From: Escherichia coli
Lineage (GTDB): Bacteria > Pseudomonadota > Gammaproteobacteria > Enterobacterales > Enterobacteriaceae
Assembly: GCF_003334405.1 (NCBI RefSeq)
Contig: NZ_QOWM01000008.1
Direction: 5' to 3' (one strand)
Length of the DNA: 64,000 nt
Position numbers and translations under genes: made by a program
Shown here: positions 31,071-31,770 of the stretch, in pieces
How the letters are laid out: every line of letters starts with the position of its first letter
Position numbering within the stretch: position 1 is the stretch's first letter
The notes under the pieces: generated by a model
Told to the model about the DNA's origin: nothing
Databases searched by the model: none
Seen by the model: only the letters and a program-made list of their open reading frames with translations

Positions 31071-31770
31071 ACTTCGTCATTATTTTTACTTTGTTCCCGC
31101 GCAGTTATCAAAAGCAAAAGGAATAGGTAAAAATATTCTTCTCAAATTACAGTTAGTTATAAGGATTTCCTTAACTGCTTCTCCTCACCATCATGTTATT
31201 TTCGCCACATCATAATCCTGGGCTTGCTGAAGAATAATTGAAATGATATTAGTAATTCCACTGCCTTTGGTAGAGGAAAGTGCTAAATAATAATCAATTG
31301 TTAAATTATTGTGCATTTCACTACTGGAACTGTAATCAGAAAAGATAGACATGCTTAGCCAATCTCTATTTGATTGAATTGAAAGATGTTTGTTAAGGCA
31401 TGGATGCAAGCTATAGATTCTGATACGGTCAATAAAAGAGAATTGCTTAACAATTTTGCAAAATGTATTGGCGAGTAAGAACCGCATTTGGTACTTTCCG
31501 GGCAACCGCCAGACGATTCTTTATTGGTAATGAGAATAATTAACAATTAAAGAGCGTCGCGAAAGAATAATGTGTCTCGACAGGGGAGACACAGTACGAA
31601 TCGACATAAGGTGATCGTCTGAATCACCAGAATAAATAAAGTCGGTGATAGTAATACGTAACGATAAAGTAACCTGACAGCAGAAAGTCTCCGAGCCTGT
31701 GCAGGGTCCCAATCCGGGATTACACATGCTGGTTAATACCAGTAATTATAATGAGGGAGTCCAAAAAACA

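Follow-up and report, generated by a model that had tools for sequence, protein, structure and literature searches.

The ychE-oppA spacer of Escherichia coli is the published oppA control region, with a conserved hairpin beside the RNase E site of its leader

Introduction

The closest described system to the region considered here is the 5′ UTR of E. coli oppA (Igarashi et al. 1997; Carrier et al. 2023, PMC9988348). Two oppA transcription starts, P1 (+1) and P2 (+246), were confirmed by Carrier, Lalaouna & Masse 2023 (PMC9988348), and the former 'P3' at +341 was identified as an RNase E cleavage site (Carrier et al. 2023, PMC9988348). Pairing of MicF was mapped to +372..+393 with an AU-rich translational enhancer from +399 (PMC9988348), and a MicF pull-down enriched the 'ychE_oppA' intergenic region 14-fold. 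Carrier et al. 2023 (PMC9988348) detected no stable RNA derived from the leader in E. coli, nor any effect of MicF on processing.

In Salmonella the oppA 5′ UTR is the source of OppX, an RNA that acts as a sponge for MicF (Matera et al. 2022, as related in PMC9988348), with published sizes of 410, 190 and 109 nt (Matera et al. 2022, as related in PMC9988348). A small RNA candidate named 'ychE-oppA' was reported by Raghavan et al. 2011 to be Hfq-dependent and to lack a Rho-independent terminator.

The window analysed here, a stretch of 64,000 nucleotides of E. coli DNA, contains this region in full. A sequence-only reading had favoured an oppA promoter with a long leader for the gap between ychE and oppA, in agreement both with the published data from primer extension, probing and reporters, when their positions are transferred to the window, and with the pattern of conservation across 68 species. 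The same reading had called the gap the least explained stretch in the window, which does not hold, as the gap is the already published oppA control region and among the better-studied E. coli leaders.

Extent and Setting of the Spacer

The gene order in the window is adhE (minus strand), the 17-codon ychT, ychE (30386-31033), the gap, oppA (ATG at 31771) and oppB. The gap had been described as long and AT-rich, and it measures 737 bp (31034-31770) between the ychE stop ending at 31033 and the oppA ATG at 31771, with a GC content of 37.3% against 49.8% across the window. No other piece of this size in the 64 kb has a lower GC, and the 0.14% of 737-bp windows that are as low all overlap the gap. 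The sequence-only reading had started the spacer at 31071, which is just past the terminator hairpin of ychE. Within the neighbouring adhE-ychE spacer, just upstream of ychE, ychT is a RefSeq-annotated 17-codon ORF at 30302-30355, and it may be a leader peptide for ychE.

The gap separates ychE from oppA and adjoins the start of the latter on the same strand; very probably it constitutes the cis-regulatory region of oppABCDF, comprising two promoters, a folded leader of 511 nt and minus-strand ORFs that arose by chance. In the proposed arrangement transcription would start past the ychE terminator from two sigma-70 promoters of the extended -10 type, P1 (+1 = 31260) and P2 (+1 = 31505), flanked by conserved blocks that may bind proteins. 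Transcripts from P1 would carry the 511-nt leader, with a conserved series of helices in its final 200 nt. There, hairpin HP1 (31571-31593) would immediately precede the invariant, single-stranded AUCGAC at which RNase E cuts (between 31599 and 31600); a second hairpin, HP2, would follow the cut, and after it an A-rich stretch and GUCGGUGAUAG would jointly form the docking site for MicF. The leader would be completed by the translational enhancer, two further helices and the ribosome-binding site at which Hfq and GcvB act.

Promoters and Conserved DNA Blocks

Published positions were placed on the window by means of the oligonucleotide table of Carrier et al. 2023 (PMC9988348). The T7 template that begins at the cleavage site starts with ATCGACATAAGG, which is window position 31600 and corresponds to +341; the oligonucleotide for the enhancer deletion removes bases from 31658, corresponding to +399; and +372..+393 falls on the MicF-complementary AATAAATAAAGTCGGTGATAGT at 31631-31652. 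These three concordant anchors give P1 = 31260, and therefore P2 = 31505 and a P1 leader of 511 nt. The published positions of P1, P2, +341, the MicF site and the enhancer map consistently, with extended -10 motifs correctly placed for both starts.

A scan for OppA gave 80 species-level Enterobacteriaceae loci, of which 68 had both ychE and the oppA start locatable on the contig. In the alignment of these 68 spacers conservation is strongly blocked, with identity of 0.2-0.4 between blocks, and P1, P2, the RNase E motif (AUCGAC), the MicF site and the ribosome-binding region all fall on conserved blocks, a further one lying at 31272-31313. The features of the upstream part are as follows.

31047 to 31070, plus strand: intrinsic-terminator-like hairpin of ychE, AAACGGAGC / TGCCAT / GCTCCGTTT, a 9-bp perfect inverted repeat followed by a T-rich tail
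31194 to 31213, unstranded: block upstream of P1 (about -66 to -47), identity 0.68-0.86 in 68 species
31224 to 31252, plus strand: P1 promoter, -35 TTGCTG (31224-31229) and extended -10 TGATATTAG (31244-31252), near-invariant in Enterobacteriaceae and fitting the published start
31260, plus strand: P1 start (+1), from three independent published oligonucleotide or position anchors
31272 to 31313, unstranded: block at +13 to +54 of the P1 transcript, identity 0.74-0.89
31434 to 31497, plus strand: P2 promoter, with an upstream block (31434-31467), -35 TTGGCG (31468-31473) and extended -10 TGGTACTTT (31489-31497), from the conservation profile
31505, plus strand: P2 start (+246), published position

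Other species also have a hairpin at the same place after ychE, with different stem sequences and, in many of those shown, a T-run next to it. At P2 the shape of the conservation is promoter-like, the hexamers being conserved and the spacer between them variable. The ychE-oppA spacer has been listed as RpoD-bound with H-NS in genomic SELEX, and a tiling array recorded a sense transcript from about window position 31542 through the operon. Two strong ChIP peaks of Lrp have been reported at the oppA promoter, with Lrp repressing oppA in minimal medium.

The motif TGTTA-N6-(T/C)CACA is found at 31194-31209, approximately 58 bp upstream of P1, and reads TGTTATTTTACTCACA in most genera. The 31194-31213 block resembles a CRP site in its shape, with a spacing to P1 that differs from the canonical -61.5, and the 31272-31313 block is a candidate operator or Lrp-type site. 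The 9-mer TTAACAATT occurs in two direct copies and one inverted copy (AATTGTTAA), at 31296-31304, 31447-31455 and 31540-31548, with the first two sitting within strongly conserved blocks; these copies may be repeated binding sites for one factor, possibly Lrp.

Three further candidates in the upstream part were set aside. A conserved minus-strand promoter in 31287-31315 is unlikely, its would-be spacer being the most conserved part, and a promoter of the form TTAACA-17-AAGAAT at 31540-31568 is poorly conserved (0.37-0.59) with no start reported there. Long-range pairing of 31275-31288 with 31486-31499 and of 31296-31304 with 31447-31455, as an RNA domain closing the P1-specific leader, was rejected because the blocks are conserved without compensation, position 31279 is mismatched in most species, and the P2 promoter makes up the 3′ block.

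The HP1 Hairpin

The final 200 nt of the leader contain the following elements.

31571 to 31593, plus strand: HP1 (+312..+334), 8-bp stem with a GACAGGG loop, from a covariance model, covariation and folds
31598 to 31605, plus strand: GAAUCGAC motif with AUCGAC, the published RNase E cut (+341) falling between 31599 and 31600
31610 to 31628, plus strand: HP2 (GGUGAU / CGUCUGA / AUCACC), with compensatory stem changes
31631 to 31652, plus strand: MicF pairing site (+372..+393), from published lead probing, identity 0.86-0.88
31658 to about 31677, plus strand: AU-rich translational enhancer, from the published deletion starting at +399
31673 to 31680 with 31697 to 31705, plus strand: conserved helix CCUGACAG / CUGUGCAGG, from RNAalifold, with some two-sided changes
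31728 to 31743, plus strand: hairpin GCUGGU / ACCAGU (31728-31733 with 31738-43), from RNAalifold, one pair having two-sided changes in 8/32
31752 to 31773, plus strand: Shine-Dalgarno region (GAGGG) and oppA ATG (31771), the published binding region of Hfq and GcvB

A short perfect hairpin had been noticed in the spacer, and it is present as GTGTCTC / GACAGGG / GAGACAC at 31572-31592, the stem extending to 8 bp (TGTGTCTC...GAGACACA) at 31571-31593. Its presence thus stands, and the weight given to it was too low, since it is a conserved RNA structure rather than a chance palindrome. HP1 holds the same position in every genus with very different stem sequences (GTGTCTC/GAGACAC, CGCGCCTC/GAGGCGCG, TCAACCTG/CAGGTTGA, GCCGTCGA/TCGGCGGC and CCCCC/GGGGG, for example) around a conserved (G)ACAGGG loop. 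Its end falls a few nt ahead of the invariant AUCGAC (mode 5), usually with GA preceding the latter. A covariance model of HP1 matched exactly once per locus in 80 of 81 sources, in each case on the plus strand upstream of oppA, and nowhere else in the 64-kb window.

The covariation score of HP1 was 0.32 in a sequence-only alignment and 0.36 in a model-based one, against 0.21 +/- 0.017 for shuffles (0/500 as high) and at most 0.165 for slid partners. Pairing reached only 69-73% in these alignments because some clades are mis-registered. When sequences were folded one by one the mean energy was -13 kcal/mol and z fell below -1.64 in 90%; the 80 sequences have 66 different stems. RNAalifold recovered the stem from a 32-species alignment, both sides of a pair being changed in 8-14 of the 32 sequences; given a plain MAFFT alignment restricted to the 42-nt region of the hairpin, it predicted no structure, because stems are mis-registered between clades, a problem that the longer alignment and the per-sequence folds resolved. 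In 74 of 78 species the sense strand gives a better fold than the complementary strand, a figure whose nominal P is inflated by related species, and HP1 uses 94 G-U pairs on the sense strand. Taken together, the conserved asymmetric loop, the covarying stem and the strand bias identify HP1 as an RNA structure of the oppA leader.

The hairpin might instead be an intrinsic terminator or a palindromic protein-binding site in the DNA. It is a perfect inverted repeat, and a consensus scan flags a terminator-like stem on the minus strand followed by TTATTCTTTC. On the plus strand, however, a conserved U-run directly after the stem was looked for and is absent, and the weak T-rich tail that follows on the minus strand is confined to E. 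coli, with no conservation in other genera. A stem that varies freely with its pairing kept around a conserved asymmetric loop is the opposite of what an operator would show, and the G-U pairs and greater stability of the sense strand described above argue against both forms of this explanation, which is very unlikely. Judging from its position, HP1 would place or delimit the RNase E cut, and it might also cap or protect the 3′ end of the upstream fragment.

RNase E Site, MicF Site and Downstream Leader

The ATCGAC motif is invariant in 66 aligned sequences, a set chosen for carrying ATCGAC; one Escherichia locus (L005) has ACCGAC in its place. HP2, downstream of the cut, is present in 77 loci (66 distinct sequences) with stem changes that compensate each other, the mean z being -2.2. 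The MicF site holds, as judged from oligonucleotide EM2982 and the sequence, stretches complementary to MicF nt 14-25 (exactly) and to nt 1-6 (with one G-U). A generic RNAduplex scan with MicF was not specific, other places in the window scoring equally, and the MicF site therefore rests on the published probing and on exact complementarity. Nearer to oppA, the GCUGGU / ACCAGU hairpin sits just upstream of the ribosome-binding region. The published 'oppAUCG' compensatory mutation (AGT to TCG) falls at 31759-31761, where it adjoins the Shine-Dalgarno sequence (GAGGGAGTCC); the upstream MicF site also contains an AGT (31650-31652), and the mutation was not placed there.

RNAalifold pairs AUCGAC (31600-31605) with GUCGGU (31641-31646), the latter inside the MicF site. 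This predicted helix would link the RNase E cut site to the MicF site; all six of its pairs are invariant or nearly so, which puts it beyond the reach of covariation. The module made up of HP1, AUCGAC, HP2, the A-rich stretch and GUCGGUGAUAG is kept in essentially every Enterobacteriaceae oppA leader. It is conceivable, if rather doubtful, that the whole module works as one hitherto undescribed RNA device. The factor brought in or held in place by HP1 would then be RNase E or a protein that binds the loop (CsrA, ProQ or Hfq, for instance), and the AUCGAC/GUCGGU helix would couple the access of RNase E to occupancy of the MicF site. The results of Carrier et al. (PMC9988348) count against a strong regulatory link between the cut and MicF in E. 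coli. What the analysis adds is a family-wide structural map of the final 200 nt of the leader, in which the RNase E and MicF sites lie within one conserved fold.

Minus-Strand ORFs

The three minus-strand ORFs of 104, 63 and 68 aa that had been noted in the gap all exist.

31191 to 31505, minus strand: 104-aa ORF from TTG (98 aa from the ATG at 31487), antisense to P1 and the P1-specific leader, judged non-coding
31355 to 31546, minus strand: 63-aa ORF, intact in 0/68 other species, judged non-coding
31521 to 31727, minus strand: 68-aa ORF, intact in 0/68 other species, judged non-coding

The sequence-only reading had proposed analysis of their conservation, and this revealed no conservation at the codon level, with each ORF intact in 0/68 other species. 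Among these 68 are E. whittamii, Escherichia sp. MOD1-EC7003 and 'E. coli' E69, which represents a separate species-level cluster. A codon adaptation index of 0.60-0.63 lies within the range of shadow ORFs (0.57 +/- 0.07) and below that of 92-96% of the real genes in the window, and none of them matched Pfam or NCBIfam. A search of both strands for conserved small ORFs found none; the ATGs that are shared between species lie in promoter elements and the lengths of the ORFs that follow vary widely.

The 68-aa ORF has aligned lengths of 167-219 nt, mostly not multiples of 3, and its exact sequence was not found in the protein collection. The AT skew over this ORF is +0.27, the sense strand being purine/A-rich, and the ORF stays open because such a sense strand leaves few stops on the opposite one.

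The 98/104-aa ORF (31191..31505, minus strand) could be seen as a young but real gene that is confined to E. coli and Shigella and runs antisense to the oppA leader. Many E. coli strains keep the frame open, 'hypothetical protein' is its PGAP annotation, and a weak GGAA lies approximately 9 nt upstream of the ATG at 31487. At 104 aa the ORF also exceeds 98% of mononucleotide shuffles of the gap, for which the mean is 59 +/- 16 aa (P about 0.017); this is mildly unusual and not striking. Against this, the frame is interrupted in every other species, including the three other Escherichia species-level representatives, and among nine E. coli sequences it has been broken twice independently by a nonsense allele, once in O157:H7 and FDAARGOS_946 and once in AVS0285. 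PGAP calls at this ORF vary between 98 aa, 53 aa and none, and the curated MG1655 record has no gene there. Its cluster at 90% identity contains only E. coli/Shigella 'hypothetical proteins', with 1282 distinct sequences of the 98-aa protein; its codon usage is that of shadow ORFs, and no protein family matches it. The ATG at 31487 is shared across species because it is part of the -10 region of P2, and it heads ORFs of anywhere from 14 to 98 codons. As such, a young gene at this position is extremely unlikely.

The small reverse-strand ORFs are almost certainly non-genes, and the probability that any one of the three is a gene is minimal; in keeping with the control-region reading, they would be chance frames in AT-rich, strand-skewed non-coding DNA. 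The discovery value of the analysis is small, its main yield being the clearing of three spurious ORFs, one of which is annotated by pipeline as a 'hypothetical protein' in many E. coli.

Distribution and Origin of the Spacer

The gap sequence is present in 5424 of 5426 complete E. coli genomes with 90-100% identity, at least 95% in all except five records; of the 5525 places in the complete-genome collection that match this chromosomal spacer, 13 are in records labelled plasmids. Beyond E. coli, ychE and oppA are adjacent in 68/68 species with a spacer of 713-878 bp and 34-44% GC, and the presence of a long AT-rich spacer between the same two genes in all of them indicates that it is ancient and maintained rather than acquired DNA. 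An origin as an H-NS-silenced remnant of horizontally acquired or mobile DNA with decaying genes, to which the low GC, the reported H-NS binding and the frequent IS insertions might point, has next to no probability, given the similar length and composition of the spacer family-wide where a patchy distribution would be expected, its strongly conserved blocks and ORFs that match no protein family. A search of 29800-32200 against Rfam 15 (E <= 10) found no curated RNA family, the noise lying at 17-20 bits against thresholds of 40-65.

Strain Differences at P1

At 31252 the window has G, giving a P1 -10 element of TATTAG, as do the other sampled E. coli strains and 68 other Enterobacteriaceae species. 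The K-12 strains (PG20180052, MG1655) and the published K-12 oligonucleotide have T at this position (TATTAT), nearer to the consensus. From this distribution the G-to-T in K-12 looks like a derived change, and, being nearer to the consensus, it is probably promoter-up. The published work on the oppA promoter was all done on K-12, with the derived base in the P1 -10 element.

The interval between P1 and P2 (31250-31425) is a hot spot for IS insertion in laboratory strains, with the following mapped cases; IS1 in JM83 is counted as a further one.

31283 to 31286, unstranded: CTAA target of IS5 (insH21), inserted in the MG1655 reference genome
about 31252: IS2 insertion in W3110
about 31417 to 31423: ISSen4 (IS3-family) insertion in NCTC122

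Each mapped insertion cuts P1 off from oppA, and in approximately 83 of 5425 matching E. coli records the spacer is not present in one contiguous piece. An IS between P1 and P2 is frequent in K-12 strains, and caution is called for in generalizing from K-12 data on oppA expression.

Comparison With Described Systems

The published E. coli oppA 5′ UTR (Igarashi et al. 1997; Carrier et al. 2023, PMC9988348) is the same locus as that in the window and differs from it by one base, the T of the K-12 leader at 31252 in the P1 -10 element (PMC9988348), where the window has G. The main text of Carrier et al. 2023 (PMC9988348) makes no mention of a hairpin 5′ of the cleavage site or of covariation, and the RNA used in vitro in that study starts at +341 and hence is without the hairpin.

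In a Salmonella locus (L071), HP1, AUCGAC, HP2 and GUCGGUGAUAG occur in the same order as in the window. The published OppX sizes, known through the account given in PMC9988348, would fit 5′ ends at P1, at P2 and at the processing site with a common 3′ end. E. coli differs in that no stable fragment of the leader was detected and MicF activates the translation of oppA instead of being sponged (PMC9988348). The 'ychE-oppA' candidate comes from the same intergenic region and, with the properties reported by Raghavan et al. 2011, would fit a processed leader fragment.

The surroundings of the cut likewise have a parallel. RNase E processing sites flanked by a stem-loop have a single-stranded A/U-rich site with U at +2. 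The oppA cut, GA|AUC, is like these sites in having U at +2 and in following a stable hairpin at a distance of a few nt (mode 5), and by analogy with them we infer that HP1 may take part in the selection of the site by RNase E.
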